Below the pieces are notes generated by a model. It had not been told where the DNA came from. It saw only the letters and a program-made list of their open reading frames with translations, and did not search any database. Below, piece after piece: positions 1,527-29,431 of a stretch of 44,755 nt of DNA (the stretch's first letter is position 1; each line of letters starts with the position of its first letter). A program made the position numbers and the translations under genes. The stretch comes from Candidatus Thalassarchaeaceae archaeon (GTDB lineage: Archaea > Thermoplasmatota > Poseidoniia > Poseidoniales > Thalassarchaeaceae), in the NCBI GenBank assembly GCA_029250665.1, contig JAQXEV010000006.1, positions 1 to 44,755 on the forward strand. The letters are read 5' to 3'.

Positions 1527-3035
1527 ATGCTTGAGTCGACTACAGAGGGCGCGGAATTAGCCGCATCAGGTGCTTTGACGCTGGACAGATTCGGAGCCGA
1601 ATCCGCACGAATTGGAAGAGAACTTGCAGACCAATATCATCGCTATCATATCGAGACAGAAGATGTCGACGATGTAGATCCGCTACCGCATAGATTCCTC
1701 GTCGAAGTCGGCAAATTCGGATTGGCCAAGTTCATCGTCTCAGAGGTATTACATTACGGACTAAATCCTGAGGTCATCCTTTCTCGACCTTGTACATATG
1801 GAGTATTCTCTGGTCCAGTCGGTGGCTTTGTTCCTCGACCAAAACTATGCGTCGGTTGCCTTCGCTGCACCGTTCAACATCCGGATTTCGTCAAGGTGCT
1901 ACCGAATCCCAAGAGGGTTGCTCTCGGAGATTCGTACACCACTCACGGACATATTGCAGCTATTGATGAAGAATCGAAGAAGGGCTTGGTGCCTGTCCGT
2001 GGACAAGGTTACCGCGGCCGATTCGGTGGACCTGGGTTCGATGGTATGCTGACGGATATGTCTGAGATTGTCCGCCCAAGCAGAGATGGAATTCACGGCC
2101 GCGAACTCATCGGCACATCCGTCGATATTGGTACCAAACCGATGCACCTCTCATTTGATGAGGACGGAAATTTGCAAGGTAAGGCTCCGAACATGTTCAC
2201 TATTCAGGTGCCATTCGTATTCGATGTTCCACCTGGAGATTTGGGGACAGCCAAGTTGGCAAAGGTACTCGATTCAACCAGCAAGAGAATCGATACTTTG
2301 GCTTGCATGAAAGCAGCAGACGTAATTGAGATGGGAATGGATTCTCCGAACATCGTCCCAGTGATTCCAAAGGAAACACCGGAGATGGTAGAGATGTTCC
2401 CAGCCGCACGACTCATCGAACTCGATGGCTGGGACAAGGATTCGCTGGACGCGGCGAGGTTGGCAACAGACGCTCTGATTGGAGTTCGAATCTGTTTCAC
2501 AGAAGGTTGGCAAGATCGTATGATGAAGGCAGTCAACAACCGCGTAGACGTCGTTCATCTCAACGCAGACCTACATGGCCGCGGTTTCGACGACGGCCGA
2601 TTCATCTCTGATTTACTCAAGGAAGCCCACATGCTCCTAATCGAGAAGGGCTGCCGAGATATGGTGACTCTAATCGGTGCGGGCGGACTCGTCAGCGCCG
2701 ACCACTTACCAAAGGCAATAATCAGTGGACTCGACGCAGTCGCACTCGACCTTCCAGTCCTATTCGCACTGCAAGGTCGCTCGCATGGGTCTCTAGTCGA
2801 TCGCGAGCAAGTACGAGGAACCCTCCCGAAGAAGATGACGCAGGAATGGGCCGAACAGCGGCTCACCAATCTGTGCGCTTCATGGCGTGACCAGCTGCTC
2901 GAAATCCTCGGAGCGATGGGAATCCGTGAGGCGCGCCGACTCCGCGGAGAATTCGGCCGCTCAATGATAGTGAGCCATCTCGAGGACGAAGCCTTCGAAG
3001 GGATTGAGGGATATGTTAGTGGAGGTGCTATCTGA
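1527..3035 (+). CDS. Glutamate synthase-related FMN-barrel paralog with N-terminal ferredoxin-like segment (degenerate)
   Basis: CTYGV...CVGCLRCTVQHP; GQGYRGRFGGPGFDGMLTDMSEIVRP; VTLIGAGG...KAIISGLDAV; LLEILGAMGIREARRLRGE. Lacks the QGAKPG, TGEGG and 3Fe-4S motifs. Confidence 0.8.
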   Translation: MLESTTEGAELAASGALTLDRFGAESARIGRELADQYHRYHIETEDVDDVDPLPHRFLVEVGKFGLAKFIVSEVLHYGLNPEVILSRPCTYGVFSGPVGGFVPRPKLCVGCLRCTVQHPDFVKVLPNPKRVALGDSYTTHGHIAAIDEESKKGLVPVRGQGYRGRFGGPGFDGMLTDMSEIVRPSRDGIHGRELIGTSVDIGTKPMHLSFDEDGNLQGKAPNMFTIQVPFVFDVPPGDLGTAKLAKVLDSTSKRIDTLACMKAADVIEMGMDSPNIVPVIPKETPEMVEMFPAARLIELDGWDKDSLDAARLATDALIGVRICFTEGWQDRMMKAVNNRVDVVHLNADLHGRGFDDGRFISDLLKEAHMLLIEKGCRDMVTLIGAGGLVSADHLPKAIISGLDAVALDLPVLFALQGRSHGSLVDREQVRGTLPKKMTQEWAEQRLTNLCASWRDQLLEILGAMGIREARRLRGEFGRSMIVSHLEDEAFEGIEGYVSGGAI

Positions 3036-4435
3036 TGTCAATTATACAGGAATTCAAGGATGCATACAAGGGCAAGGTGCAATTGCCGAGCGAAGAATTA
3101 CTTACCAAAACGACCGGTCTGATGCAGGACGGAATGCGCGCTCGAGCGATGGGCGATTACATCTCACCAGAGGCTCTTGGTGACGCACGCTGGACTGACG
3201 AGTTGATTCTCTCAACTTGGTATATGGCTGAAACTGGTGAAATTCCTGAGGGGCTCAATTACAAAACCGGAAAATCTGACGGCGGCTTCGACAGATTGGA
3301 TTTCAAGTTCTTACCTGAAAGCGATTGGCTCGAGCACTCGGATTCGATTACAACCAAGCTAGATCTAAATCGTCGTGGCGATGCCAAGAACAAGCTGACA
3401 ACTGACATTCCATGGTATGGTGGCGGTATGTCGTATGGTTCGGTATCGGTCAATGTGATGATGTCGCGCGCCCGCAACGCGGCGCGCTGGAATTCATTCA
3501 TGTCAACCGGTGAAGGTGGTTATCCACCGCAATTGATGGAATGCAAGGAGAACGTCATCACTCAGGTTGCAACCGGTTATTTCGGCGTCGAGGAAGAGAC
3601 GATTCAGGCGGCGCCGATTGTCGAATTCAAGTACGCACAGGGCGCGAAACCTGGACTCGGGGGTCATTTGCTTGCAGCAAAGGCTGGCGAAGAGGTTGCG
3701 AAGTTGCGGGGAAGCGTTCCTTTCGTCAGTCTATTCAGCCCATTCCCATTCCATTCGACTTACTCGGTCGAGGACCATTCGAAGCATCTCGATTGGATCG
3801 AGACCGTCAATCCAACTGCTCTGCTTTCGGTCAAGGTGAGTACCCCTCACGATGTCGACATGGTCGCAGTCGGTTCTTTCTACGCCGGTGCGCACATCAT
3901 CCATCTCGATGGTTCCTATGGCGGCACCGGAGCAGCACCTGAAATCGCCAAGAAGAATATCGCTATGCCAATTGAATTGGCGATTCCGAAGGTGCACAAA
4001 TTCCTCCAAGCCGAGGGTGTGCGTGACCGTGTCACGCTCATCGCCAGTGGCGGAGTCCGCACGGCCGACGATATTGCCAAGGCAATCGCACTCGGCGCCG
4101 ATGGCTGTGTCCTCGGTACCACCGATCTTGTCGGTTTAGGCTGCACCCGCTGCTCAAATTGTGAGGGCGGACCATCCGGTCGTGGCTGTCCATGGGGCTT
4201 GACCACGACCGATATCGAGTTGCAGGAATGGGTGCAGCCGGATTGGGCTGCCGAGCGACTCAACAATCTCTACACTGCAATGCAGTACCGGCTGCGCGAC
4301 ATCCTTCGGCAACTCGGACTATCAGATGTCTCAGAATTACGCGGCCGCACTGATCTCCTTCGATACATGGGTAAGGACGAGGCTGCCAGGGCGGCAGGCA
4401 GAGCCGCGGGCATCGGATTGGAGGAGATCGAATGA
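3035..4435 (+). CDS. gltB2: Glutamate synthase FMN-binding subunit (GltB domain 2 / GltS type)
   Basis: GGMSYGS, STGEGG, TQVATGYFGV, EFKYAQGAKPGLGGHL, GGTGAAP, ASGGVRT..D.AKAIALGAD, and 3Fe-4S motif GCTRCSNC...GCPWG. Confidence 0.93.
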   Translation: MSIIQEFKDAYKGKVQLPSEELLTKTTGLMQDGMRARAMGDYISPEALGDARWTDELILSTWYMAETGEIPEGLNYKTGKSDGGFDRLDFKFLPESDWLEHSDSITTKLDLNRRGDAKNKLTTDIPWYGGGMSYGSVSVNVMMSRARNAARWNSFMSTGEGGYPPQLMECKENVITQVATGYFGVEEETIQAAPIVEFKYAQGAKPGLGGHLLAAKAGEEVAKLRGSVPFVSLFSPFPFHSTYSVEDHSKHLDWIETVNPTALLSVKVSTPHDVDMVAVGSFYAGAHIIHLDGSYGGTGAAPEIAKKNIAMPIELAIPKVHKFLQAEGVRDRVTLIASGGVRTADDIAKAIALGADGCVLGTTDLVGLGCTRCSNCEGGPSGRGCPWGLTTTDIELQEWVQPDWAAERLNNLYTAMQYRLRDILRQLGLSDVSELRGRTDLLRYMGKDEAARAAGRAAGIGLEEIE

Positions 4436-7002
4436 TCGACCCGAACACCTTCATCGATGCGCGACGCGCAATGACTGCATCCCATCCCAAGTTTGAGCGG
4501 CGCGATGAAGACGCAGCCGAAGGCGGCTGTGGAGTGGTCGGCCTCGCCTGCGAAATACCAGTTGCTGGACGCCACTTATTCGACTCACTCGAACAGATGC
4601 GTAACCGAGGTAACGGCAAGGGCGGCGGAGTCGCTATGGTCGGCCTCAATCCAGACCAATTCGGCACCGACCGCGAAACCCTTGCTTCGACCTACCTCTA
4701 CGCGGTCGCCTACCTCAACAACGAGGTGCGATCCGGAGTTGAAGCACTCATCACAGAAGCCTACAATCTCCATCACACGCACGAGATGCCTACCCTCCCA
4801 ACTTGGCAACAAGACCTGCCAGCACTCGAGGTCCAACCTCCATCTGTAGTCTGCTACTTTGTCACACCGAGGGCTGACAAAGTCGACGAATTCATCGAAA
4901 ACCAACTCTCGGCAGTTGTCGACGCGGCTGACCGAGCCGCGGTCGAAGAGGAATACACCTTCCACATCACTCATTCACTGAACGTCGAATTCTACGCCAA
5001 AGACGGGCGAACTGACGCATTTGTTTTGAGCCACGGCCGAGACATTTTGATTTTGAAAATCGTTGGATATGCAGAGGATGTCATCCGCTACTACCGTCTC
5101 GACGATATGACTGCACACGTCTGGATAGGCCACCACCGCTACCCTACGCGCGGCAGAGTCACGCACCCTGGTGGGGCACACCCCTTTGGTCAGGGAATCG
5201 ATTGCGCGCTTGTTCACAACGGAGATTTCTCGAATTATGTATCGGTGAAAGATTACCTCGGTCAGAGAGGGATGGAACCACTTTTCTTCACCGATACCGA
5301 GGTCGCTGCGTTGGCTTTCGATCTACATCGCCGGGTCTATGGATACACGCTTGAACATGTGATTGAGAGCTTGGCACCGACCAGCGAACTCGACTTTATC
5401 ATGCTGCCAAAGGAGAAGCAAGTGGTTTACGAGGCGATTCAGAAGACGCATATCCACGGTTCGCCCGATGGTCCATGGTTCTTCATCATCGCACAATCCG
5501 ATGGTCCCACTCATCGATTGCTTGGGATTACTGACACATCGATGCTGCGCCCGCAGGTTTTCGCTTACCAGCGCGGCGATGTTGGAATAGCATTCTGTGG
5601 TTCCGAGAAGCAGGTTATCGATGCAGTTCTCGACTCGCTCGCCTCCGAGGATACTCGATTTTGGCGGCGCGCAGATGAATATTGGAATGCGCGCGGTGGG
5701 TCATATACCGATGGCGGCGCATTCATGTTCGATGTTACGCCGAACGCTGACGGAAGCAAGACGTTGGAGATGCGTGACAAGTTCGGCGCAATTGTCAACA
5801 CTACTCCAGAGGGTGATTACAAACTCATGCCAGCTGGCGAGTATGCATTCACTCTCGATACTCCTAGGGCCACTTTCGATGGGCTGGTTGCAGGACTTCC
5901 ATCGATGGATTGGTCTGAGGCTCGAGCCTGTCTAGAAGCAATCGAGAACGCATCTGGAGACAAGGGTCGAACTTGGGTTTGGGATACTCTGACTCTACTA
6001 CTCGACCGCCGCTACAATTGTGGCAGCCTACGCGAATCGGTCTGGAAGGACCTCGTCGAGGCTGCCTTGATTCGCACGGTGGCATCTTCCGCAGCCTATC
6101 CGTGCGATGCATACAATGGACAGAAAACGCTCGGCCACAGGCCTGAGCCAGCGAGCGTATCACAAGCGATTGTTGTCGACGCTCGCCCATATCCAATCGA
6201 AGGAATCGAATCGCTAGCCCTAGAACTCGTGGCTCTTCACCGAATGGGCTGGAAGCGATTCGTCGTCATCAATTGCCAAGGTCACCGATTCATTGGAAAC
6301 GGTTTCGGCCCAGCTACAAGCGATGTGCGAATCGACGTTTTGGGCGCGGCAGGAGATTATCTCGGAAGCGGCAACGATGGTATGACAATCCACATGCATG
6401 GCAATGGACAGGACCAAATCGCTCAGATTCACAAGTCTGGCGAGTTGGTCATTCACGGTGATGTCGGTCAGTGCTACGGCTACGGGTCGAAGGGCGGAGA
6501 GATGTTTGTTCTCGGTAATGCTGCGGGTCGTCCAATGATCAATTCTGTGGGCGGACCACGTTTGGTAATCAACGGCACTGCGCTGGATTACTTGGCTGAA
6601 TCATTCATGGCTGGAGATCCGCTTGACGGCGGTGGCTTCGTCATCATCAACGGCCTGAAGTTTGGAGTCGATGGAAGCATGAGCGCTCTCGAGACTCCGT
6701 ATCCTGGCAGCAATTTGTTTTCGTTGTCTAGTGGCGGGGCGATTTATGTTCGTGACCCGCACGATAGGTTGTCTGCTTCGCAATTGAACGGTGGCGAATT
6801 CACCGAGCTGACCGAGGCTGATTGGGAGGTTATTGAGCCACTATTGCTGCGCAATGAGGAACACTTCGATATTCCACTAGAGCGGTTGTTGACGGTCGGT
6901 GGCAAGCGCCGCAGTCCATACAATGTCTATCGCAAGATTTCCCCTGTGAAGTCGAAGACCTTGCACGCTGAGGCGGCTTGGGTCGGGCATCATGACGATT
7001 GA
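4432..7002 (+). CDS. Glutamate synthase class II glutamine amidotransferase domain fused to GXGXG C-terminal domain (GltB1-GltB3)
   Basis: EGGCGVVG (Ntn nucleophile Cys33 after a propeptide), RNRGNGKGGG, GHHRYPT, AHPF, VHNGD, TDTEV, LRPQ; C-terminal GXGXG repeats GHRFIGNG, GDYLGSG, GDVGQCYGYG, SGGAIYVR. Confidence 0.88.
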   Translation: MIDPNTFIDARRAMTASHPKFERRDEDAAEGGCGVVGLACEIPVAGRHLFDSLEQMRNRGNGKGGGVAMVGLNPDQFGTDRETLASTYLYAVAYLNNEVRSGVEALITEAYNLHHTHEMPTLPTWQQDLPALEVQPPSVVCYFVTPRADKVDEFIENQLSAVVDAADRAAVEEEYTFHITHSLNVEFYAKDGRTDAFVLSHGRDILILKIVGYAEDVIRYYRLDDMTAHVWIGHHRYPTRGRVTHPGGAHPFGQGIDCALVHNGDFSNYVSVKDYLGQRGMEPLFFTDTEVAALAFDLHRRVYGYTLEHVIESLAPTSELDFIMLPKEKQVVYEAIQKTHIHGSPDGPWFFIIAQSDGPTHRLLGITDTSMLRPQVFAYQRGDVGIAFCGSEKQVIDAVLDSLASEDTRFWRRADEYWNARGGSYTDGGAFMFDVTPNADGSKTLEMRDKFGAIVNTTPEGDYKLMPAGEYAFTLDTPRATFDGLVAGLPSMDWSEARACLEAIENASGDKGRTWVWDTLTLLLDRRYNCGSLRESVWKDLVEAALIRTVASSAAYPCDAYNGQKTLGHRPEPASVSQAIVVDARPYPIEGIESLALELVALHRMGWKRFVVINCQGHRFIGNGFGPATSDVRIDVLGAAGDYLGSGNDGMTIHMHGNGQDQIAQIHKSGELVIHGDVGQCYGYGSKGGEMFVLGNAAGRPMINSVGGPRLVINGTALDYLAESFMAGDPLDGGGFVIINGLKFGVDGSMSALETPYPGSNLFSLSSGGAIYVRDPHDRLSASQLNGGEFTELTEADWEVIEPLLLRNEEHFDIPLERLLTVGGKRRSPYNVYRKISPVKSKTLHAEAAWVGHHDD

Positions 7003-18419: not shown

Positions 18420-18551
18420 AAGCCCTTCATCGGAGGTGAACTACACAGTGTCAGTTCTCGGGCGGGTATTGTACCAGCCGGAGCCCTTCTTTGAGCCGCC
18501 CGTAGGGCGGCGCACGCATTGACCGAACCTTCATACCCGAATCGATATCGC

Positions 18552-21500
18552 ATGAACTCGTTGCCCATGCGTAGCCTGACACCTCTCACGTTATTCGCCA
18601 TTCTGATGGTGACGAGCCTCTCGCCCCTTGCGTTTGGCCCGGCACTGGACCACAACCCAGCGCGCGAGGTCTCACCTCGTGCCCTAATCGACTTCGAAGT
18701 GACAGCCATCGAGATTGGAAACGGTTCTCTCGACGCGAGGGAATGGACCAATCCAGATGACAGCATCGTTGAATATGTTCTCCGCGATGAATTGATTCAG
18801 ATCAATGTCACATTCACCCAAGCAGGAACCTCTGGCCAGCCGGCGAGTGCAAGTGGAATGTTGCAGATATGGCACCCTGTGGGATTCATGATTACACAGT
18901 GGGAAGTGAATATGACACTCTCCGGATTCCAATCCCACCGAGCAGAATTCTACTGGACTCCTAATTCTGCTCACAGCCAACTCGATGAGAATGGATATCT
19001 CGTTGGCGGTATAATCCTCCGCGGCATCATTGACGGCGGCCTCGCAGACGACAATGAAGAGAATAATCAGCTCGACCGCGAGATGCCAGTCGCTGTATGG
19101 GACGACCCGATGGAGAACGGCATTTGCGGAGATGTAGATCAAGACAATACTGCAGATTGCCCGAACCAACTAAGCTACGGCAACCCAACTTGGGTCGGAG
19201 CTGGCTACGATTCCGACGGTTCTCTCTCCGACAACCCTGATTACTACGGGCACTGGAGGATGGACAACACCTCGAGTGCCATTGGCGAGCGCCACTGGCG
19301 AATCTCCCGACAGGGCGCTGATTACGCAAGCAACCGAATTGATCGCATCTGGTGGGGTTGGTTGACACCTTTCGAATCCTGTGAGGATCCCGGACACGGT
19401 CTAGGTTACGGAACACTCGACCAGAGTGTGTCTGCTGTATACGCCAACAATTTCTGCCGCGCTCGTATCCGTGGGTTCGAATTCCTCTCTTTGCAGATGG
19501 TCTCACACGCCTGGGGTAGCATGGGCGCGGGCGATATGGTCCGAATGGAAGCGGATGCCGGTAACGAGGAATTCTACAATTACACTGCTCAAGAGTTATC
19601 CGAAACTTACGGAGATTGGACTCAACTGGTTTGGAATATGTCCGACGTCCACCCGACTGGTGACTATACACTGGCATTCAGATTCGATTCGGATTCTTCC
19701 CATGCGACGCAAGGAATTCACCTTGACGGATTCATCATGTTCGGTATAGAGCGTGTACCAGAATACACCCTTGGTCTCGAATGTGACGACCCTCTACCAA
19801 ATGCATACATCGTTGTTCCTGCCGATCCACGACCACCATCCCTCTGGTGCACAGTGAAAAATAATGGATACGTCGACATCACTCTCAGACTTTACACCGA
19901 GGTGTCGAACAAGTCATGGATGTGGGAGCACCCACTGCGAATCGATTCTAACCATCCTTCAGATCACGACAATAGCGTTGTAACCAAGACCATCAAAGCA
20001 CTGGAGACCATGGATCTCTGGATCAATCTGACTATTCCCGACGGTGTGACCGTTCAGGAAGTCAATTGGTATGTCCACATCGGCGATGGTTTGACAAATT
20101 TCTCAAAGTGGTCCGTCGACTTGCCCGTCGATGTCACAGCATCATATTCGTCCTATCTGACGCAGAAAACATTGCAGAATCCTGCTCTTACATTGTTACC
20201 TGGTGAAACGGGCGATGTTTTGATGTCTCTGAAGAATACTGGAAATCAGGTTGCTACATGGAACCTCGGTGGAACTTTCGCAGACAATCGTTGGAGCGCA
20301 ACGAACCTTGTTTGGGCAAATGAGACAGGAGTCGAAATGACGAGTGTCGAGATGCAGATAGGCGACGAATTCGAACTCAATGCTCGACTCACCGCCCCTG
20401 AGGAAATCACTCCTGGTTCTTACGCGATTACACTGCTGGCCAATGGGCGTGCTCCGGCTAATTTCCAGACCGAATGGACCGTTCAAGTCGAAGTGCCGAT
20501 TGATCACGATCTGAAGTTGGTACCTGAGGTTCGAGAGATGTTGGCACCAGCCGATGGTGCTCTGAGATGGATCGAAATTCAGATGGTCAACGATGGTAAC
20601 TCCGAGGAGGCCTTTGATCTGTCGATTTCTGCCGATTGGAGACTAGGTCTCGAATTGAACGCCGAACAGACTCTCGGTATCGATCCGTTCGGTGGAGATA
20701 CCAGTATTTTGCTGATGTTCCCGATGCCCTACGGAATAGAGAATGAGACCTACCAAATATGGGTCCGAGCGACCAGTCAAATCGATCCTCAATACCAGCG
20801 CAGTGTCCAATTGTTGCTAACGGTTCCCGAAACTTATCTCATCGAGGTTCCAAATATGGATCTCACCGAGGAGGTTTACCGCGCGGGTGATGATTCCCGG
20901 ACTTTGCGTTGGGAGATATGGAACCATGGGAATATGCCCGATCGGTTCCACATTTCCTTCGAGACTAGCCATTCTGACGTCTCGGTAAATGCGCAGGGAT
21001 TAACCAATGGTAAGACACCTTGGATTGGAGCTGGATCATCTCTCAATCTGACAGTTAGTTACGCCTTCGCACAGGGTGCGGATGGCGACCGCACAGTCAC
21101 CTTGATTGCTGCCAGTCAGGAGTCTGAGACAATCGGCCAGAGTGTATCTTCTCAAGGTGAGGCCGAATTCAAGGTTGGAAAGGTCGGATGGATGCTAGTT
21201 TTGCCTCCAGCCGGTGGACAAACCGTTGTTATTGATGAGAAGGGAGAATATATCCTCGAATTCACTGTTCAGAATTTGCATACTACATCTGAACAGTTGA
21301 TGAGAGCGGATATTGATCGCACTACAGAGCCTGAACTCTTCTTCAACGTCTTCGATGTCCGTGTTGACAGCGAGGACCGAGATTTCGTTCTGCCCGCCGG
21401 TTCGACAAAGGTCGTGACAGTTCGTGTTGATGTCAAGCAGGAGCATCTGGACAATCTTGGCGAGAATACGCTCGTGTTCAACGTGATTCTTGCGGTCGAT

Positions 21501-22115
21501 TCCGACATAGACAAGGTATCTGTCGGAACTCCAATTGAAATGGTGAAGACTGTTCAGGTCACCGAGGGACCCGATGTCGGATTTATCGCCAAGTTGGCAG
21601 CGAACATCGTCTTCGTCATCGCCGGATTGGTTGCGATGGCTGTCGTTGGCATAATCACATTCCGAATTTTCAAGGAAGCGCAAGCGCCACTTGAGGAATA
21701 CTCGAGCATCGAGGATTACTCGCCAAGTTTTGCCAATCTAGGGGGGGACGGAGAAGTCCCAGCCGCACCTGAGTTGCCAGCAGCCGACGAGGTTGCGAAT
21801 TCGATGTATGGTGGCTCAGCTGATATCTTTGAGAATCCTGCGGCTGAAATGCCACCGCCACCTCTACCAGAGGATGAGCAAGCAGCACCACCAGCACCAG
21901 AGATGCCTCCTCCACCAATGCCTGAACCTGAGCCTATGCCAGAGCCAGAGCCTGTTGAGGAGGAGATTCCTGAACCTGAGCCGGCTGTTGAGCCTGAGCC
22001 TGCTCTCCCACCTGGTGTCCCTCCGATTCCAGAAGATGGCCTCCCCGATGGTTGGACCATGGAGCAGTGGGCCTTTTACGGCCAGAAATGGATTGATCAA
22101 CAGAAGGGTGATTGA
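18552..22115 (+). CDS. Large cell-surface protein with tandem Ig-like (CARDB/NEW3-like) domains, C-terminal TM, Pro/Glu-rich linker and GLPDGWTMEQW tail motif
   Basis: Signal peptide; DDNEENN CARDB-like motif; repeated (V/L)xNxGN motifs; TM near the C-terminus; many N-x-S/T sequons. Start at 18552 or 18567. Confidence 0.8.
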   Translation: MNSLPMRSLTPLTLFAILMVTSLSPLAFGPALDHNPAREVSPRALIDFEVTAIEIGNGSLDAREWTNPDDSIVEYVLRDELIQINVTFTQAGTSGQPASASGMLQIWHPVGFMITQWEVNMTLSGFQSHRAEFYWTPNSAHSQLDENGYLVGGIILRGIIDGGLADDNEENNQLDREMPVAVWDDPMENGICGDVDQDNTADCPNQLSYGNPTWVGAGYDSDGSLSDNPDYYGHWRMDNTSSAIGERHWRISRQGADYASNRIDRIWWGWLTPFESCEDPGHGLGYGTLDQSVSAVYANNFCRARIRGFEFLSLQMVSHAWGSMGAGDMVRMEADAGNEEFYNYTAQELSETYGDWTQLVWNMSDVHPTGDYTLAFRFDSDSSHATQGIHLDGFIMFGIERVPEYTLGLECDDPLPNAYIVVPADPRPPSLWCTVKNNGYVDITLRLYTEVSNKSWMWEHPLRIDSNHPSDHDNSVVTKTIKALETMDLWINLTIPDGVTVQEVNWYVHIGDGLTNFSKWSVDLPVDVTASYSSYLTQKTLQNPALTLLPGETGDVLMSLKNTGNQVATWNLGGTFADNRWSATNLVWANETGVEMTSVEMQIGDEFELNARLTAPEEITPGSYAITLLANGRAPANFQTEWTVQVEVPIDHDLKLVPEVREMLAPADGALRWIEIQMVNDGNSEEAFDLSISADWRLGLELNAEQTLGIDPFGGDTSILLMFPMPYGIENETYQIWVRATSQIDPQYQRSVQLLLTVPETYLIEVPNMDLTEEVYRAGDDSRTLRWEIWNHGNMPDRFHISFETSHSDVSVNAQGLTNGKTPWIGAGSSLNLTVSYAFAQGADGDRTVTLIAASQESETIGQSVSSQGEAEFKVGKVGWMLVLPPAGGQTVVIDEKGEYILEFTVQNLHTTSEQLMRADIDRTTEPELFFNVFDVRVDSEDRDFVLPAGSTKVVTVRVDVKQEHLDNLGENTLVFNVILAVDSDIDKVSVGTPIEMVKTVQVTEGPDVGFIAKLAANIVFVIAGLVAMAVVGIITFRIFKEAQAPLEEYSSIEDYSPSFANLGGDGEVPAAPELPAADEVANSMYGGSADIFENPAAEMPPPPLPEDEQAAPPAPEMPPPPMPEPEPMPEPEPVEEEIPEPEPAVEPEPALPPGVPPIPEDGLPDGWTMEQWAFYGQKWIDQQKGD

Positions 22116-22215
22116 GTAGAATTCGCTGATTCGGTGGCACGAGCGCCCTCGCGCCTACGTGTGCGAGGCCTTATGACCCCCTCTCTTGTCGCCGGATTCC
22201 GGAGTGTGATTTCCG

Positions 22216-23826
22216 ATGTACAACGGTCAACAACCAATATTTATCCTCAAGGAAGGGACTACTCGAACCAGCGGTAAGACCGCTCAGAGCAATAATATCG
22301 CGGCAGCTAAGGCCGTTTCTGACGCGGTTCGTAGCACCCTCGGGCCAAAGGGAATGGACAAGATGCTTGTCGATGCAATGGGCGATGTAGTCATCACTAA
22401 CGATGGTGCTACAATACTCAAGGAAATGGACATCGAACACCCTGCTGCCAAGATGATTATCGAGATCGCTAAGACTCAGGAGCAGCATTGCTTCGACGGT
22501 ACCACAAGTGCCGTTGTCATTGCAGGAGAGTTGCTCAAGCGTAGCGAGGACCTCGTCGACCAGAACGTCCACCCAACTGTAATCTGCGAGGGCTTCAGGC
22601 TCGCCTCAGATAAGGCCGCAGAACTCATCGATTCTCATTCTCTCGAGGTCAATGAGGAGCGACTTCACGAGGTCGCTATGACCGCCCTTACTGGCAAGAG
22701 TGCCGGGGCTGTCAAGGAATTCCTCGCAGACATATCAGTCCGTGCTGTCCTTGCAGTTAGCCAAGAAACCGATGACGGCGTCGTCGTCGACCTCGACGAC
22801 ATCAAGATTGAGAAGAAGCAGGGTGGGTCAATCAAGGACAGTTCCCTCGTCGACGGAATTATCCTCGACAAGGAGCGAGTCCACTCAGGAATGCCTCGCT
22901 CGGTCGCTGGCGCAAAGATTGCACTCATCAACTCGGCAATCGAGGTCAAGAAGACAGAAGTCGACGCTAAGATTCAGATCACAGATCCAAATATGCTGGC
23001 GCAATTCCTCGACGAGGAGGAATCATTCCTCAAGGGCCTCGTCGACAGCATCATCGCCAGCGGAGCCAATGTCGTCATCTGCCAGAAGGGCATAGACGAT
23101 TTGGCTCAGCACTACATGGCCAAGGCCGGTATATTCGCTATTCGCCGCGCTAAGAAGAGCGACATGGAAGCGCTCTCAAAGGCGACCGGCGGCAGTATCG
23201 TCACCAATGTCGATGACCTTAGCGGAGACGACCTCGGTCAAGCCGCAAAGGTTGACGAGCGAAAGATCGGCGATGCAGACATGGTCTTCATCACCGGCTG
23301 CCCGGAAGCCAAGAGCGTCAGCGTATTGCTGCGCGGCGGAACCGAGCATGTGGTCGATGAGATTCGCCGCGCATTCGATGACGCCGTTGGCGTCGTTGCA
23401 GTTGCTCACGAAGATGGAGCAGTTCTCACCGGCGGCGGTTCAGTTCTAGCAGCCATCAGCCGCGACTTGCGATCATACGCCGAAGGAATCGGTGGAAGGG
23501 AACAGATGGCAATCGAGGCCTTCGCCGGAGCTCTCGAGGTCATTCCTCGAACCCTCGCCGAAAACGCTGGCCTCGACCCGGTGAACACGATTATCGATCT
23601 CAGAAAGGCACATTCCGAAGGTCTCTCGACCTACGGAGTGAACGTCTACGACGGCGGAGTCGTAGACATGGCAGAGAGCAGAGTGTACGAGCCCAGCCGT
23701 GTTGTGGAACAGGCCGTGCAGAGCGCTTCGGAGACCGCAGTGATGATCCTCAGGATTGACGATGTCATCTCTAGCAAGGGCGGCGGCGGCATGGATGGCG
23801 CCGACTTCGATGGCTTCGATATGTGA
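22216..23826 (+). CDS. ths: Thermosome subunit (group II chaperonin)
   Basis: [33 protein letters not shown], Gly/Met-rich tail. Confidence 0.98.
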
Positions 23827-23833
23827 GGTCGAT

Positions 23834-23850
23834 TACGACCGTAGGTCGTA
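23834..23850 (+). terminator. Hairpin after the thermosome gene (candidate terminator or 3' stabiliser)
   Basis: TACGACC-GTA-GGTCGTA perfect 7-bp stem just after the stop codon. Confidence 0.4.
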
Positions 23851-23921
23851 TCACTAGTTTACATCAAGTTCAAGAATCGATTTCGGGTGGGGCAACCACC
23901 CGTCGGGGCTGAGTTGGAAAA

Positions 23922-25895
23922 ATGGCCATCGTCAGTGTCTATATTGAGGAGGGTTGCATCACCTGTGATGCCTGTGAAGAGATACTTCCAGAAGTCTTCC
24001 ACGTGACCGATGATACTTGCTTCATCAATGCCGAAGTGAGGCTTGATGGTGGATACGATAGGAACGAAGGGAAGGCGGGATTGAAGCCTGAAACTCTAGC
24101 TTCATTCGAAGATGACCTTCTCGACGCTGCTGATGGTTGTCCAGTCGATGTGATCATCATCGTCGAAGGTGGAGTGGCGGCCGCTGCTGAGCCCGAGGAG
24201 GCTGCTGCACCAGCCGCTGAAGCTACTGTAGAACCTGTGGCGTCCGAGCCCATCGAAGTGTCTGGTGATGATATCGGTGAGTTGCTAAGTGTTGGTGACC
24301 GCAGCCTCGCGATTCTCTTTGGCTCACAATCTGGAAACTCTGAGGACCTCGCTGCGAAGTTTGCAAAGCAGGCTGCGGATTATGGCCTCGAAGGAACCGT
24401 CCATGATATGGATGGCTTCGATTTTGGTTCGCTGTCGGGTATGAAGAGAGTCCTCATCGTCTGTTCTACTTGGGGAGAGGGCGAAATGCCCGACAATGCT
24501 GAGGAGCTTTGGCAGACCTCAACGAAGGCTCCAGCCGGCACTCTGTCCGGAGTCCACTTCTCGGTCTGTGCTCTCGGTGATACGAGTTACGAATTCTTCT
24601 GTGAGTCTGGAAAGGAATGGGATGAGCAATTCGAGAAACTCGGTGCTACACGACTCGTGGAGCGCGTCGATTGTGATGTCGATTACGATGCACCAGCAGC
24701 CGCATGGGCTATCGATGCACTGGCTGCTCTAGCCGCCGTCGATGGCTCCGGCGTCTATCATGAAGATATGATTGAGGCGATCAAGGCTAACGCCGCTGGC
24801 GATGTTGGCGGCGCCGACGGTGAAGACGGATTCTCAGTACCTGATCTAACGGCCGCCACTGTACAGGCCGAAATCAGCATCTTCCGCTATGATCCAGAGC
24901 AGGCATCGACCGGTTCCGACACTTGGGTCTGTGCGATGCCGGGTCACCTGAGTCTGCTGGAAACTCTTCGAACCATCAAGAGCACACACGATGGTAGCCT
25001 GTCCTTCCGTGACGGGGCTGCCGACGACCCATCGACTGCAATCTGCGTCAATGGGAGATTGGTTCTCCCAGGCATGATTCGCCTCGACGCTGTCGCCCCG
25101 ACTCGCGATGGAGTTCTCAGTCTGCGAGTCGACCCACTACCTGGCTTCGAAGTCATTCGTGACCTCGTCGTCGATCATTGGCCGATGGAGCGCAGGCGCG
25201 AATCAACCGAACCATGGATGGTCGCCGCAACTCGAGAAGGGGCCGCTACCATGCAAGGCGCCATCGGAGTAATGGATCCGAATGTCGCTACAGCGTTACA
25301 CTCGATTACTGATTTCAGCAGTGCCGCCCTCCTTCAAGCATCATCCGACGCTGTTCCACATGCGAATGGCTACCTCGGCCCCTCTGTCCTCGCTTCTGCT
25401 TGGGCTCGCCGTAACGATCCACGTTCATCGCATTCATCGGTTGCCAGCCTTGATTCGATCCTTGGAAGTAAGAACGGAATCAAGGCTGAGACAGATTTAG
25501 CCAGTATTCGTCGGCAGAATGGATCCGGTGTAGTCATCTCAGAGGCTTTGCTTGACGCAAGGACGCACGTTCTCGAGCAGGACGCATTCACAGGGCGTCA
25601 CGGCAAGCATGTTTGGTGGTACGCTTGGACGCTGAAATCGAGTGGAAAGGTCAACGATACTGTCCTCTATCGACAAGTTCTCGGCCCGATTGGACTTATT
25701 GGAAATCTGACTTCAGGAGTCACTGCGCGAATGGTGACCGGATTCACGCGCACAGGTGGAGACATGTTCTACGATATGTTGGCGATGGTCGCTCCGCCCG
25801 CAGGATTAGGAAAGATGCCGCGGCAATTCAATTCATCAGTCGAGAACCATCATGAGGTCGTAGCAATTTTCAATGAGCTCGACGGGAGATTCTGA
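23922..25895 (+). CDS. Ferredoxin + flavodoxin + SdhB/FrdB-like (Cys-depleted) fusion protein
   Basis: CITCDAC...GCPVDVI; ILFGSQSGNSE, STWGEGEMPDNA, ALGDTSYEFFC; IFRYDPE, IKSTHDGSLSFR, VDPLPGFEVIRDLVVD, YLGPSVL..AW..RNDPR. Confidence 0.85.
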   Translation: MAIVSVYIEEGCITCDACEEILPEVFHVTDDTCFINAEVRLDGGYDRNEGKAGLKPETLASFEDDLLDAADGCPVDVIIIVEGGVAAAAEPEEAAAPAAEATVEPVASEPIEVSGDDIGELLSVGDRSLAILFGSQSGNSEDLAAKFAKQAADYGLEGTVHDMDGFDFGSLSGMKRVLIVCSTWGEGEMPDNAEELWQTSTKAPAGTLSGVHFSVCALGDTSYEFFCESGKEWDEQFEKLGATRLVERVDCDVDYDAPAAAWAIDALAALAAVDGSGVYHEDMIEAIKANAAGDVGGADGEDGFSVPDLTAATVQAEISIFRYDPEQASTGSDTWVCAMPGHLSLLETLRTIKSTHDGSLSFRDGAADDPSTAICVNGRLVLPGMIRLDAVAPTRDGVLSLRVDPLPGFEVIRDLVVDHWPMERRRESTEPWMVAATREGAATMQGAIGVMDPNVATALHSITDFSSAALLQASSDAVPHANGYLGPSVLASAWARRNDPRSSHSSVASLDSILGSKNGIKAETDLASIRRQNGSGVVISEALLDARTHVLEQDAFTGRHGKHVWWYAWTLKSSGKVNDTVLYRQVLGPIGLIGNLTSGVTARMVTGFTRTGGDMFYDMLAMVAPPAGLGKMPRQFNSSVENHHEVVAIFNELDGRF

Positions 25896-25904
25896 GGTGA
25901 GAAA

Positions 25905-26765
25905 ATGGCTGTCAAATACGCTTACCACCCTGGAAATGTCGCCCACAGCAGCGCTCCCGAGGTTGCTGATACGATGGGCCCCTTGGCTCGCGCCTTGGAT
26001 ATCACTCTGGTTCCTTTACCGGGAGCTACCAGTTGCGGCGCCGGAATTGTAAGACAGGCTAACCGTCGCCTGCAGTTGACTCTCAATGCACGTACCTTTG
26101 CTATGGCAGAGGCACAGGGTCTGGATATCATGACTCCGTGTGCTGCGACGGCGGGTAATTTACACGAGGACCTGATGACTTTGAGGTCAGACCAAATTTT
26201 GCTGCAAGAAGTCAATGAGACTCTGCAGCGCACTTGTGGTTTGACGATGACAGGGGATGTTGCAGTTCACCACTTACTACACGCGGTTGTCGATGAGATT
26301 GGACTAGACAAGTTAGCGGATAAGGTCCGCAACCCGATTGATTTCGCGGTTGCTGGATATTACGGACCAAACATGCAGCAAGAAGGCGCTTGTGGCGGAG
26401 ATGATGTGTATGATCCAGATTATCTTGAGCAGTTAATTTCAGCTCTTGGTGGAACTCCAGTTAGCTGGGAGGCTCGGACTCAGAGTGTCGGCGTCCCTGG
26501 GATATTCAGTGAGGAGCCGACTGTGATGAAGCAAGCTGCTGAGGCTCTGTCCGAGGCTAAGGCTGAAGGTGCTGAGTTGATTGTCAGCGCTTGCAATCTT
26601 TCTCATACCGTTCTTGATGTATATCAGGGCAAGGCCGGTCGTGATACCGGACTTGCGACTAACATCCCAGTGATTCATCTGTGCGAGATGCTTGCTTTCG
26701 CTCTTGGTACACACAATAGCCGATTGGCTCTACTCAGGACTCGTATCGCTGTTATCGGTGACTGA
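25905..26765 (+). CDS. SdhE/HdrB-like CCG-domain protein with degenerate cysteine motifs
   Basis: YAYHPG, SCGAG, LNARTFAMAE, TPCAAT, VAGYYG, SACNLSH..LDVYQ, IPVIHL..MLAFALG match the HdrB/SdhE scaffold; GAGGTGA SD, 9 nt after the upstream stop. Confidence 0.85.
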   Translation: MAVKYAYHPGNVAHSSAPEVADTMGPLARALDITLVPLPGATSCGAGIVRQANRRLQLTLNARTFAMAEAQGLDIMTPCAATAGNLHEDLMTLRSDQILLQEVNETLQRTCGLTMTGDVAVHHLLHAVVDEIGLDKLADKVRNPIDFAVAGYYGPNMQQEGACGGDDVYDPDYLEQLISALGGTPVSWEARTQSVGVPGIFSEEPTVMKQAAEALSEAKAEGAELIVSACNLSHTVLDVYQGKAGRDTGLATNIPVIHLCEMLAFALGTHNSRLALLRTRIAVIGD

Positions 26766-26770
26766 TTCTC

Positions 26771-29431
26771 TCAGCGATTACGAAGACGCTCACCGGAGCG
26801 AAATGTCCGCCAGATTTCGCGGACTTGGGTTTCTGTAATTCCTTCGACTTGACGTAGTTCATCTTCGTCTGCCCAGACTAGACCTGCGATGGTTCCGAAT
26901 CGGTTGAGTAGACGGGTTGCGAGGTCTTCGTCGACGCTGGGAATAGCGACGAGCAGGGTGATTGCGCCTGTGCGCTCGTCGTCTTCACTGCCGCGGAGTT
27001 GGCGGGCAGCGGCAGCGGCTTGGGTTACGGGATCAGTCCAGAATTCTGGTTTGACCGCCTCTAACCTATCTCGCGCGTGAGGAGTAAGTCCGTCAAGCAT
27101 CGATTCTTCGCGGCGCGATGCGACCGTGAGGAATCTGGCTGTTTCTGCCCCATCTTTCGTAGTGACCACAGGGATTCCGAAGTCGAGTGCGAGAGTAGTG
27201 AGTGCTCCCATCAGTGCGTGGGGGTGGACTCTGGGGGAGCGGAACAGTCCTTCTCCCTCGATTAGTAGCAGACTTCTGGGGGCTGCTCCGACTAGTCTGC
27301 TCGCTTGTTCGAGGAGCCTGCCGTCGACGAGTGAGTCGACGAAGTCTCTGACAGTTTTCCGCTCAACTAGGATTCGCTCGCCGATACGAAAGTCACCCGT
27401 CTCGAGACGGTCGATTCGGACCTCAGTCCCTAATGCCTTCAATCGTGCCACTACGGCGCTGTTGAGTTCTCTATCATCGGCTGTAACCGTTGCTCCGGGG
27501 ACATCGGGTAGGCTATCTTCAAGGTCGATTAAATCTTGTGCGGCTGAGACTGGGTGTTTTGTCTCTTCAGGAGGCTTTGGATAGCTCTTACTTGGTGGGT
27601 TGGAAGGGCTTGATTCTTTTTCGCGTATGTGGGGTGTTTGTCCTCCCGCTGTTTTCTGCTTCTTTAGGACAACATCCTCACGCTGTGCTGGGAAATTTTC
27701 GAGACCGGTTTGCCCCCTCGGTCTGAATGTGGATGGGGGGATTATTCGAGGCTCTGCTGCAGTCTCTGTGGTCTCAGGCTGCTGCTGCTCACTGAGTTCC
27801 GGGCGATGTGCCTCTCGTATGCTTCGGACAAACTCAGCAGCAGGAGTTATTTCGTCTTCGATTATTACTCGGAACTGAGCCAAATTTGAGAGATCAAGAT
27901 GGCCACTACGAGCCAATTTTCTTCGAACTCTGCCGACTGCTCGGTACATGTTTTCTTCACGTCGAAGGGCGGCTGCACGCGCTCCTTCATCACGAGTATC
28001 TTCGGCTATCAAGACGACAACATCTCCATCGCGATGACGGCCGGTTCGACCCCGGCGCTGGATATTACGAATTTCGCTAGGTACCGGCTCGTAGAATATC
28101 ACGAGATCGGCACTAGGAATGTCAAGTCCTTCCTCGCCGACGCTCGTAGCAATCAGTATGTTTCCTTCGCCCGAGCGGAACGATTCGATGCGACTGACCT
28201 GCTGCTTTGGTGTCAGGCCTTTCCCACTTCCTCGCTTGCTTTGGCCGATGAATTGGATTGGCTTGGCACCTTCGAGGTTCTCCAATGCTGTATCTAGGGC
28301 TGTCACTGAATCTCTGAAGGTCGCGAAGACGATGATTCGGGATTCGGGGTCGCGGCGCAGCCTTTCTCTTACTAGTCGCCGGACTGCGCCGACCTTACTG
28401 TGAATCTCGCCGATTTCAGCGAGGCTCGCTCGTAGGTCTCTGACTCGCGGGTCACGGAGAAGATTGCGCGTGTTCTTCTTCTCTGAGTCCGCACCGCTCT
28501 CCTTTCGGTCGAGGAATTCTCGAGCGGCAGCGGTACCTTGGCAGAGAAGGTGGTTGATCAAGTGGTGAAGGGACATCGCCAATCCGATTCTGCTCATCGA
28601 TCCGTAGGCGTCCGACTCCCCTCTGCGAATCGCGACATTCGCTCTCTCCATCGCATTGGCAAGTCCAGAATGAGAGGCAGGCCCTGGCAGGACATATCTG
28701 CCGAGCCGACGCTCTCGGTCGACGATACTCTCCTGCCAACGAACGAAAGGCTCCGCAAGTTCTCGAATTTCGTTCGGAACTTTGACTCGTAATTCCTCAA
28801 TATCGAGATTTGCGAGGTGTTCTGTGAGCATCTCATCGCTTGAACTACGCATGTGGATTCGCTCTACTGCAAGCCTCTGACAAATTTCTTCGACTTTCTC
28901 AGTCTTCGATCCCGGGCTCGCAGTCATCCCAAGAATCAGTGGATCAGCAGCGATCCCGAGATAGAGATCGGCAACTTGTGCTTCGCCACGTTGCCCTGTC
29001 GCGTGATGCGCCTCGTCAATTACCAATACACAACAGTCGTTCAGATCCAACACACCCCTAGTCACATCGTTACGAACCACTTGAGGTGTTGAGACGATGA
29101 GGCGACTCTTCTGCCACATTCCGTCTCGCTTCGATGCAGGTATCGCTCCGCTCATTGCGATAGGTTCGATTGTTTCGTCCTTGAACACAGCTTGCAAATC
29201 ATCGAGATGTTGCTTCACAAGAGCTACTGTCGGCGCGATCATCAGCGCCCAGCCATCAGAGCGCTGTAGCATTTCGGCCATAACCATCCAAGCAACGGCG
29301 GTCTTTCCTGCCGCTGTCGGGAGCACAAGAAGGGTCGAACCAGACAGCGCTACATCGACTGCCTCTAGTTGATACGCTCGGGCTTCAATGACCTCGTCAC
29401 GAAGCCCATCATGCTGTAGCCTCGCGCTCAT
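26771..29431 (-). CDS. hef: Hef helicase-nuclease (FANCM/XPF homolog)
   Basis: RAYQ, LPTAAGKT, IDEAHH, TASPG, EEGLDIP, QRRGRTGR; ERCC4 nuclease GDF...VERKT; C-terminal HhH motifs. Confidence 0.95.
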   Translation of the reverse strand: MSARLQHDGLRDEVIEARAYQLEAVDVALSGSTLLVLPTAAGKTAVAWMVMAEMLQRSDGWALMIAPTVALVKQHLDDLQAVFKDETIEPIAMSGAIPASKRDGMWQKSRLIVSTPQVVRNDVTRGVLDLNDCCVLVIDEAHHATGQRGEAQVADLYLGIAADPLILGMTASPGSKTEKVEEICQRLAVERIHMRSSSDEMLTEHLANLDIEELRVKVPNEIRELAEPFVRWQESIVDRERRLGRYVLPGPASHSGLANAMERANVAIRRGESDAYGSMSRIGLAMSLHHLINHLLCQGTAAAREFLDRKESGADSEKKNTRNLLRDPRVRDLRASLAEIGEIHSKVGAVRRLVRERLRRDPESRIIVFATFRDSVTALDTALENLEGAKPIQFIGQSKRGSGKGLTPKQQVSRIESFRSGEGNILIATSVGEEGLDIPSADLVIFYEPVPSEIRNIQRRGRTGRHRDGDVVVLIAEDTRDEGARAAALRREENMYRAVGRVRRKLARSGHLDLSNLAQFRVIIEDEITPAAEFVRSIREAHRPELSEQQQPETTETAAEPRIIPPSTFRPRGQTGLENFPAQREDVVLKKQKTAGGQTPHIREKESSPSNPPSKSYPKPPEETKHPVSAAQDLIDLEDSLPDVPGATVTADDRELNSAVVARLKALGTEVRIDRLETGDFRIGERILVERKTVRDFVDSLVDGRLLEQASRLVGAAPRSLLLIEGEGLFRSPRVHPHALMGALTTLALDFGIPVVTTKDGAETARFLTVASRREESMLDGLTPHARDRLEAVKPEFWTDPVTQAAAAARQLRGSEDDERTGAITLLVAIPSVDEDLATRLLNRFGTIAGLVWADEDELRQVEGITETQVREIWRTFRSGERLRNR

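Follow-up and report, generated by a model that had tools for sequence, protein, structure and literature searches.

Among the systems closest to the gene pair treated here are the following two. In type-E succinate:quinone oxidoreductases (SQRs; the Sulfolobus/Acidianus type, with the SdhE of 8-methylmenaquinol:fumarate reductase), an SdhB-like gene is followed by a gene for a CCG-domain protein, SdhE, which the consulted part of PMC2754724 describes as a monotopic anchor without transmembrane helices, bearing an isolated Zn site with S3(O/N)1 coordination. The other is HdrB of the heterodisulfide reductase HdrABC (structures 5odc, 8rvu and 7bkb). The pair itself, genes A and B, lies at positions 23922 to 26765 of contig JAQXEV010000006.1 from a Candidatus Thalassarchaeaceae archaeon of the order Poseidoniales; the whole stretch analysed, 44,755 nucleotides (nt) long, is called the window. 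The pair has the gene order of the type-E SQRs, SdhB-like gene first and CCG-domain gene second, and like SdhE it is without transmembrane helices. Unlike them, it has no SdhA gene at the locus, a ferredoxin (Fd) and a flavodoxin (Fld) are fused to the N-terminus of A, Cys remains at 0 of 12 (A) and 3 of 10 (B) cluster-ligand positions, and B scores far below the equivalog cut-offs. HdrB is the best match of B in both sequence and fold, but both noncubane-cluster motifs of B are degenerate and it has no HdrC or HdrA neighbour. The probable role of the pair is that of a low-iron platform for electron carriers.

The uncultivated Poseidoniales rank with the most abundant archaea of the surface ocean. 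An order-wide, single-copy and strongly selected pair without an assigned role is a real gap in the account of their energy metabolism. Its domains are all known; what appears to be new is the architecture, together with a series of forms bearing two, one or no Fe-S centres. In the literature we found no description of the pair, of its architecture or of its cluster series, nor of the loss of both CCG motifs. The main text of a paper on transcription in Marine Group II (MGII; PMC9723583) does not mention flavodoxin, ferredoxin, succinate dehydrogenase, heterodisulfide, thermosome or iron, and the consulted part of a paper on archaeal fusions (PMC11237513) holds nothing on the pair.

Gene B is an open reading frame (ORF) of 286 amino acids (aa). 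The gene and its two motif remnants, the latter located by alignment to HdrB, are as follows.

25905..26765, + strand: gene B, an HdrB/SdhE-fold protein with both CCG motifs degenerate (ORF, profile matches, model)
25935..26150, + strand: remnant of CCG motif 1, N11, S43-C44 and C79..T82, with 2 of 5 Cys
26367..26603, + strand: remnant of CCG motif 2, P155, S194-V195 and C230..S233, with 1 of 5 Cys

The HdrB profile TIGR03288 aligns with B from end to end (E 1e-36, residues 4–282 on model positions 1–282 of 290), and despite this the score of 126.7 bits does not reach the equivalog cut-off of 345.15 bits. The same holds for the SdhE profile NF042965 (E 1.7e-29, residues 4–276), with 103.3 bits against a cut-off of 500. 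The Pfam CCG domain PF02754 is found at 35.8 bits, above its gathering cut-off of 20.6, in two stretches of which the best covers residues 5–80, and a sequence search matched B to the solved HdrB chain 8rvv_B (E 3.8e-28). An AlphaFold2 (AF2) model with a mean predicted local distance difference test score (pLDDT) of 90.1 and a predicted template modelling score (pTM) of 0.89 has the HdrB fold; it superposes on 5odc_B with a VIA Z of 33.8 and a root-mean-square deviation (rmsd) of 2.2 Å over 278 residues, and its template modelling score (TM) to HdrB structures is 0.88.

Alignment to HdrB places the ten ligand columns at N11, S43, C44, C79 and T82 for the first motif and P155, S194, V195, C230 and S233 for the second, so that Cys stands at 3 of the 10 positions and two complete CXnCCGXmCXXC motifs are not present. 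The first-pass annotation, made from the letters of the window, had read the strings PGN, SCG and CAAT and then YGP, QSVG and CNLS in the ORF at 25905–26765, had counted three remaining ligand Cys and had taken the fold and the reading frame to be intact; strings and count were confirmed, the fold is that of HdrB in the AF2 model, and the frame is unbroken at every one of the 75 loci surveyed below. Family variation was gauged on the 150 best HdrB-family representatives. Residues fill all ten columns in 113 of these, with ten Cys in 104, nine in 6 and fewer in 3, one of the last being the representative of the B family itself. Since 104 of the 113 keep all ten, the three Cys of B are not chance variation within the family. 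Judged by its ligand positions, the window allele is predicted to be no longer able to bind either noncubane [4Fe-4S] cluster. The bridging Cys81 and Cys234 of heterodisulfide reductase, the second Cys of each CxxC as given in the excerpt consulted, would correspond to T82 and S233 of B, by a numbering inferred from the alignment.

A match to the Asp/Glu/hydantoin racemase family (PF01177) had raised the idea of C79 and C230 as a racemase-like catalytic pair. As a family assignment this was dropped: the score is 26.2 bits (E 8e-6) against a cut-off of 31, and in the fold comparison the best racemase chain gave Z 7.2 at an rmsd of 7.1 Å, with TM at most 0.34.

Gene A comprises two carrier domains, a body and a tail.

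23922..25895, + strand: gene A, an ORF of 657 aa with ferredoxin, flavodoxin, cluster-less SdhB-like body and conserved tail (Fer4_13, Flavodoxin_1 and Fer2_3 above cut-offs)
23946..24155, + strand: single-cluster ferredoxin domain, A residues 9–78 (Pfam PF13370, 32.2 bits against 24.5)
24312..24686, + strand: flavin mononucleotide (FMN) flavodoxin domain, CysJ/MioC-like, A residues 131–255 (Pfam PF00258, E 1.7e-31, 109.8 bits against 25)
24858..25607, + strand: SdhB/FrdB-fold body without Fe-S ligand, A residues about 313–562 (AF2 model of residues 300–657, ligand columns)
25638..25892, + strand: conserved C-terminal tail, A residues 573–657 (many invariant residues; history tracks B)

The two carrier domains overturn the earlier description of the pair as cofactor-free. 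The ferredoxin domain has the pattern CxxCxxC at residue 12 followed by CP, and the flavodoxin domain, which TIGR01931 (cysJ) also matches over residues 127–272 (E 3e-40), has at residue 134 the pattern G[ST]x[ST]G[NT], which we take to be the flavodoxin phosphate-binding loop. An Ala/Pro/Glu-rich linker separates them, and from their motifs both are apparently intact. Profile searches of the genome returned the N-terminus of A as the sole match to PF13370 (Fer4_13) and gene A as the sole match to Flavodoxin_1; elsewhere the genome has further small ORFs of the Fer4 and Fer2 types, as well as one 2-oxoacid:ferredoxin oxidoreductase. Public annotation names A a 'flavodoxin domain-containing protein' or a 'flavodoxin/succinate dehydrogenase/fumarate reductase-like Fe-S protein/ferredoxin'. 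Metabolic models of these archaea would be misled by automatic labels such as 'heterodisulfide reductase subunit B' and 'succinate dehydrogenase Fe-S protein'.

The body of A scores above the family cut-off for Fer2_3 (37.9 bits against 27) and below it for TIGR00384 (52.1 bits against 88), with a weak match to TfrB (NF004898, E 1.6e-6). In the AF2 model of residues 300–657 both sub-domains of the SdhB fold are retained, and the superposition on E. coli FrdB gives a VIA Z of 20.1 and an rmsd of 3.3 Å over 234 residues. Ligand loss was scored at the 12 Cys positions that canonical and type-E SdhB have in common, which serve the [2Fe-2S] cluster, the [4Fe-4S] cluster and the [3Fe-4S] or second [4Fe-4S] cluster. 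A reads A, D, T, G, F, A, L, S, E, L, I and N in these columns, with Cys in none, and the parallel ligand loss that had been proposed for the partner of B is thus present. Over the same 12 columns in 29 A orthologues there are 2 stray Cys in total, while two of the former ligand positions, S475 and E523, are invariant. The tail has low pLDDT when folded alone, yet many of its residues are invariant.

Single chains that apparently join SdhB-like and CCG/HdrB-like parts, which here are two genes, occur in TfrB of thiol:fumarate reductase and in PDB 3KWL. TfrB keeps its clusters. For 3KWL, a 514-aa H. pylori protein, residues 231–495 superpose on the B model with Z 24.3 and residues 2–440 more weakly on the A(300–657) model, with Z 10.3; judged by these models, 3KWL is possibly the counterpart of the pair in a single chain. 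The consulted part of PMC3397514 gives it without an assigned function.

A and B lie on the same (+) strand, 9 nt apart, and one further element falls in the gap.

25896..25901, + strand: GGTGAG, Shine-Dalgarno-like, between the A stop and the B ATG (read from sequence)

Among 70 loci with both ORFs called, most have A and B 9 nt apart or overlapping by 1 nt. The linkage predicted for other genomes was found at 25 of 25 diverse loci from all three families, each with the order large surface-type protein, thermosome subunit, A, B and convergent Hef. As the first-pass annotation had noted, no SdhA or HdrA gene stands beside the pair in the window, where the neighbours are a thermosome subunit and a convergent Hef-type helicase/nuclease, and an SdhA-type gene is adjacent at none of the 25 related loci. 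No HdrC/HdrA partner (or HdrD fusion) was found beside B in a search that covered the neighbours and not the rest of the genome.

Both genes are present in RNA libraries. In 8 RNA runs, half or more of the words sampled from 23700–26900 were found, and 20 rows from 14 studies hold this interval wholly or partly. Contigs of four marine RNA runs, from four studies, cover both genes, each run having one contig that bridges the A–B junction (25390–26671, 25498–26089, 25716–26233 and 25401–26313). Some bins of some runs are uncovered by contigs, and nothing is concluded from these gaps.

Strong purifying selection acts on the pair, which belongs to the core of the Poseidoniales as a single-copy module. 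B is present in 289 of 301 Poseidoniales genomes, including 66/66 of high quality and 26/26 genera, nearly always as one match; the 12 genomes without a match are 73–86% complete. The C-terminal part of A was found in all 94 genomes of families f1 and f3 (36/36 and 58/58). Within the window genus the median dN/dS of B is 0.035 (62 usable pairs of 210, with 0.05 < dS < 1.5) and that of A is 0.055 (65 pairs), which agrees with the earlier view of a pair under selection; B is not decaying. Pairs of cluster-bearing B alleles with dS < 1.5 (n = 4) give 0.044–0.082, so that by this comparison selection on the cluster-less B is as strong as on the cluster-bearing form. Across 31 B orthologues, with identity down to 48%, 39 columns are invariant.

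The state of the cluster motifs was surveyed at 75 loci from 73 genomes, two genomes being represented twice. All 73 have a degenerate motif 2, with the pattern x-S-V-C-S (S194 in 73, V195 in 70, C230 in 73 and S233 in 71). Motif 1 is intact (CCCCC) in 20 and degenerate in the other 53, the window included, as NSCCT (43), NSDCS (7), NSDCA (2) or NSCCS (1). The earlier claim that both motifs are degenerate thus extends to the whole survey for motif 2 and to 53 of 73 genomes for motif 1. Of the three residual Cys whose conservation it had proposed to check, C79 and C230 are present in 73/73 genomes, while position 44 is Cys in 64 and Asp in 9. Since motif 2 is lost everywhere and motif 1 is intact in 20 of the 73, a one-cluster protein would be the ancestral state in the order, and the window B a zero-cluster allele of it.

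The N-terminal heads of A vary as well. The 29 full-length A orthologues comprise 21 with Fd-Fld, 7 with Fld-Fld and 1 with Fd-Fd, a second flavodoxin replacing the N-terminal ferredoxin in the 7. Fld-Fld heads accompany a cluster-less B in 7 of 18 cases and an intact B in 0 of 11, counts that are not independent because the genomes are kin. As all 7 pair with a cluster-less B, these genomes encode a version of the module without any Fe-S site. Fld-Fld forms with 84–87% identity to the window A over the C-terminal part number 8 among the 120 proteins listed. The existence of Fld-Fld forms, at this identity too, argues that the function of the module is independent of the ferredoxin cluster. 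The exchange of a ferredoxin for a second flavodoxin mirrors the known iron-sparing replacement of ferredoxin by flavodoxin in marine microbes, as outlined in the literature excerpts consulted; unlike there, the carrier in A is covalently tethered to a body derived from complex II. The result is a rare natural series, in which the same complex occurs with two, one or no Fe-S centres. It lets one ask which parts of a complex II-type enzyme serve what, and whether clusters are lost on account of iron scarcity or of oxygen.

Among the close Fld-Fld relatives of the window A are P0249, P0251, P0258 and P0265, of 720 aa. The single Fd-Fd protein comes from locus L051 of a family f2 genome; it has a pair of ferredoxin domains and lacks a flavodoxin.

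The tail of A and B are inherited together. In the tree of B, for which the outgroup SdhE served as root, the cluster-less alleles group in a single clade (Shimodaira-Hasegawa-like approximate likelihood ratio test, SH-aLRT, 100) with both large families inside, and a tree that holds the window family together is rejected (approximately unbiased, AU, test, p = 0.0055, for a group named after the tree was seen). In the tree of the C-terminal part of A, the window family is one clade (100) and the B state needs 3 changes. When this part is divided, the body (about residues 302–572) follows taxonomy, with 1 change for family and 6 for B state, and the last 85 residues follow B, with 1 change for B state (support 94) and 3 for family, in a tree that rests on few columns. 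Six columns of A separate the motif-1 states of B in both families independently, and all of them lie at residues 583–628 (for example A/P to Y/F at 583, any residue to R at 584 and S to G at 628). Both B alleles occur within one genus (g9). The mosaic signal was located at 25638–26765 of the window and at loci L045–L095.

From these trees, either a cassette of about 1.1 kb, consisting of the A tail and B, would have been exchanged between the families, or the tail and B would have co-evolved convergently. Under exchange and convergence alike the tail and B are one functional unit, and their common history is expected if the tail is the part of A that holds B.

The genome also carries a resident sdh operon, which lies on another contig and encodes a membrane subunit (290 aa), SdhA and an SdhB of 255 aa with 11 Cys. 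Elsewhere in the phylum the C-terminal part of A has weak SdhB-like matches (E 1e-13 or worse), and in 10 genomes of the class's sister family it has none. The best outside matches are operons of another family of the phylum with the order SdhA, SdhB (332–339 aa) and SdhE (about 295 aa, all motif Cys), and residues 309–601 of A align with their long SdhB. This SdhB has the extra Cys by which the [3Fe-4S] site becomes a second [4Fe-4S], a feature that the consulted part of PMC2754724 gives as the defining mark of type-E enzymes. As the nearest intact relatives are type-E operons, the pair is best seen as a type-E SdhB–SdhE minus SdhA and plus Fd/Fld, not as a copy of the resident sdh, and the A body and B are, by their sequence matches, descendants of such a module. 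The proposal of a duplicated SdhB–SdhE module accordingly stands as regards a ligand-poor SdhB–SdhE derivative and falls as regards duplication of the resident operon.

The reading that we hold foremost, and to which we give nearly even weight, is that the SdhB-like body, the A tail and B form a non-redox structural core that tethers and docks Fd and FMN carriers. The module would have lost the SdhA flavoprotein and the whole electron wire of SdhB and gained Fd and/or Fld at the SdhB-like N-terminus. A and B would form a heterodimer acting as a scaffold, a pseudo-enzyme core from which the flexibly tethered Fd and FMN domains would be docked to a partner or a surface, and these carriers, rather than B, would transfer the electrons. 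The series from Fd with one CCG cluster, through Fd only, to Fld-Fld without iron would then look like stepwise iron saving, if iron is indeed the motive.

Several observations weigh against this structural core. If the core were a scaffold and nothing more, the invariance of C79 and C230 (73/73) after the loss of their cluster partners would be left unexplained, as would that of three former ligand positions, S194 of B and S475 and E523 of A. The thermosome and Hef neighbours at the window locus give no functional hint of a partner. Neither A nor B has a membrane segment by the hydropathy scan, in which no 19-residue window reaches a Kyte-Doolittle value of 1.6. A search, of weak evidential value, among fused relatives of B of 502–2000 aa found no A–B fusion. 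The RNA contigs attest presence in RNA libraries and are not proof of a single transcript, DNA carry-over being possible. The search for long relatives did return one HdrC–HdrB-like fusion, at 35% identity.

The invariant Cys are accommodated by a second reading, which we regard as possible though rather unlikely, namely that B still has an active site. The old cluster pocket would use C79 and C230, with C/D44, S194, S233 and H234, as a thiol/disulfide or mononuclear-metal centre fed directly by the tethered FMN domain, and the module would then be a flavodoxin-dependent reductase that acts on a disulfide, a quinone or some other small acceptor. It is favoured by the retention of C79 and C230 in 73/73 genomes, by position 44 being always Cys (64) or Asp (9), both able to bind metal, and by selection on the cluster-less allele being as strong as on the one-cluster allele. 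The isolated zinc site that the consulted part of PMC2754724 reports for SdhE is a precedent. An S3 zinc site is impossible in B, however, as one Cys is left per half-site. Flavodoxins are moreover one-electron carriers and poor direct donors to disulfides, and a single conserved Cys can be structural.

Further precedents come from CCG proteins in which one of the two sites has lost its Cys and which still work with a flavoprotein donor. In the consulted part of PMC13083937, FadF and DgcB are CCG proteins with only one of the two clusters, and direct electron transfer from flavin to the CCG cluster is proposed for EtfD; a degenerate N-terminal CCG domain is noted in some proteins in the consulted part of PMC2754724. 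The CCG part of EtfD superposes on the B model with Z 18.2. FadF, DgcB and EtfD retain one cluster, along with a membrane haem domain and a di-cluster ferredoxin domain, whereas the window B keeps no cluster; in the intact B allele of the order it is the N-terminal site that is kept and not the C-terminal one.

Less likely again, in our estimate, is a more specific form of redox function, an iron-minimal electron-transfer enzyme. Here electrons would run from the swappable Fd or Fld head to the tethered FMN and from there straight into the former cluster pocket of B, with C79/C230 or a bound quinone as the acceptor. The cluster-free cassette of about 1.1 kb, A tail plus B, would have a single origin and would have displaced the cluster-bearing allele in both families, MGIIa and MGIIb, through homologous recombination, because it saves iron or tolerates oxygen better. 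If true, the Fe-S/anchor module of complex II would have been rebuilt around flavin in a manner previously unrecognised.

The first-pass annotation had suggested a possible asymmetric assembly resembling complex II, and this we consider improbable. In it the cluster-less pair would join an SdhA-type flavoprotein encoded elsewhere (the canonical SdhA, an NadB-like protein or a third FAD_binding_2 protein), possibly at the membrane, with the fused FMN and Fd replacing the lost clusters. The body of A keeps the whole SdhB fold with both sub-domains, the genome has three full-length FAD_binding_2 proteins away from the pair (on contigs C52, C116 and C32), and a monotopic anchor without transmembrane helices is what the consulted part of PMC2754724 reports for type-E SdhE. 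Against it, none of the 25 loci examined has an adjacent SdhA-type gene, the canonical SdhA is flanked by an SdhB and a membrane subunit of its own, and no hydrophobic segment stands out in A or B, nor, in a hydrophobic-moment scan of both, a strongly amphipathic one.

That B is decaying, or is a relic without function that its neighbour carries along, as the loss of 7 of 10 ligands and scores far below the family cut-offs might suggest, is hardly credible: decay is excluded by near-universal presence (289/301 genomes), 39 invariant columns and a dN/dS of 0.035, and the frame (75/75) and the confident fold speak against it too.

At one locus, L082 (G019:C27, 1071–4034), A and B were called as one ORF of 987 aa. 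A natural A–B fusion was rejected here, as the frame runs through the overlap of the two genes; a deletion, a frameshift or an assembly artefact is the probable cause. Since the conserved last ~30 residues of A are missing and the frame is read through the overlap, this ORF is not evidence for binding between A and B.

Upstream of the pair, 18519–23826 holds a 1198-aa protein without a Pfam match, with a Pro/Glu-rich C-terminus after a hydrophobic stretch, and then the thermosome subunit; both are found upstream of the pair at 25 of 25 loci. Contigs from RNA libraries also join the 3' end of the thermosome gene to the start of A (23700–24691 in X1 and 23700–24516 in X8). Two short inverted repeats, around GGTCGATTACGACC and GGGTGGGGCAACCACCC, lie in the 95 nt that separate A from the thermosome gene (23827–23921); they could be a terminator or attenuator, or nothing.

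The only other CCG-domain protein of the genome (G000:C49:8972-10204, − strand) has 410 aa, and its CCG match of 62.8 bits exceeds the cut-off; it is HdrD/GlpC-like, as its N-terminal part is hydrophobic and it carries Fe-S motifs. Elsewhere in the window, positions 1527–7002 hold three overlapping or abutting ORFs with parts of glutamate synthase, namely a weak Glu_synthase match, an FMN/Glu_synthase domain and a protein with GATase and GXGXG domains (856 aa), and judged by these domains they would be a split glutamate synthase cluster of the archaeal type.

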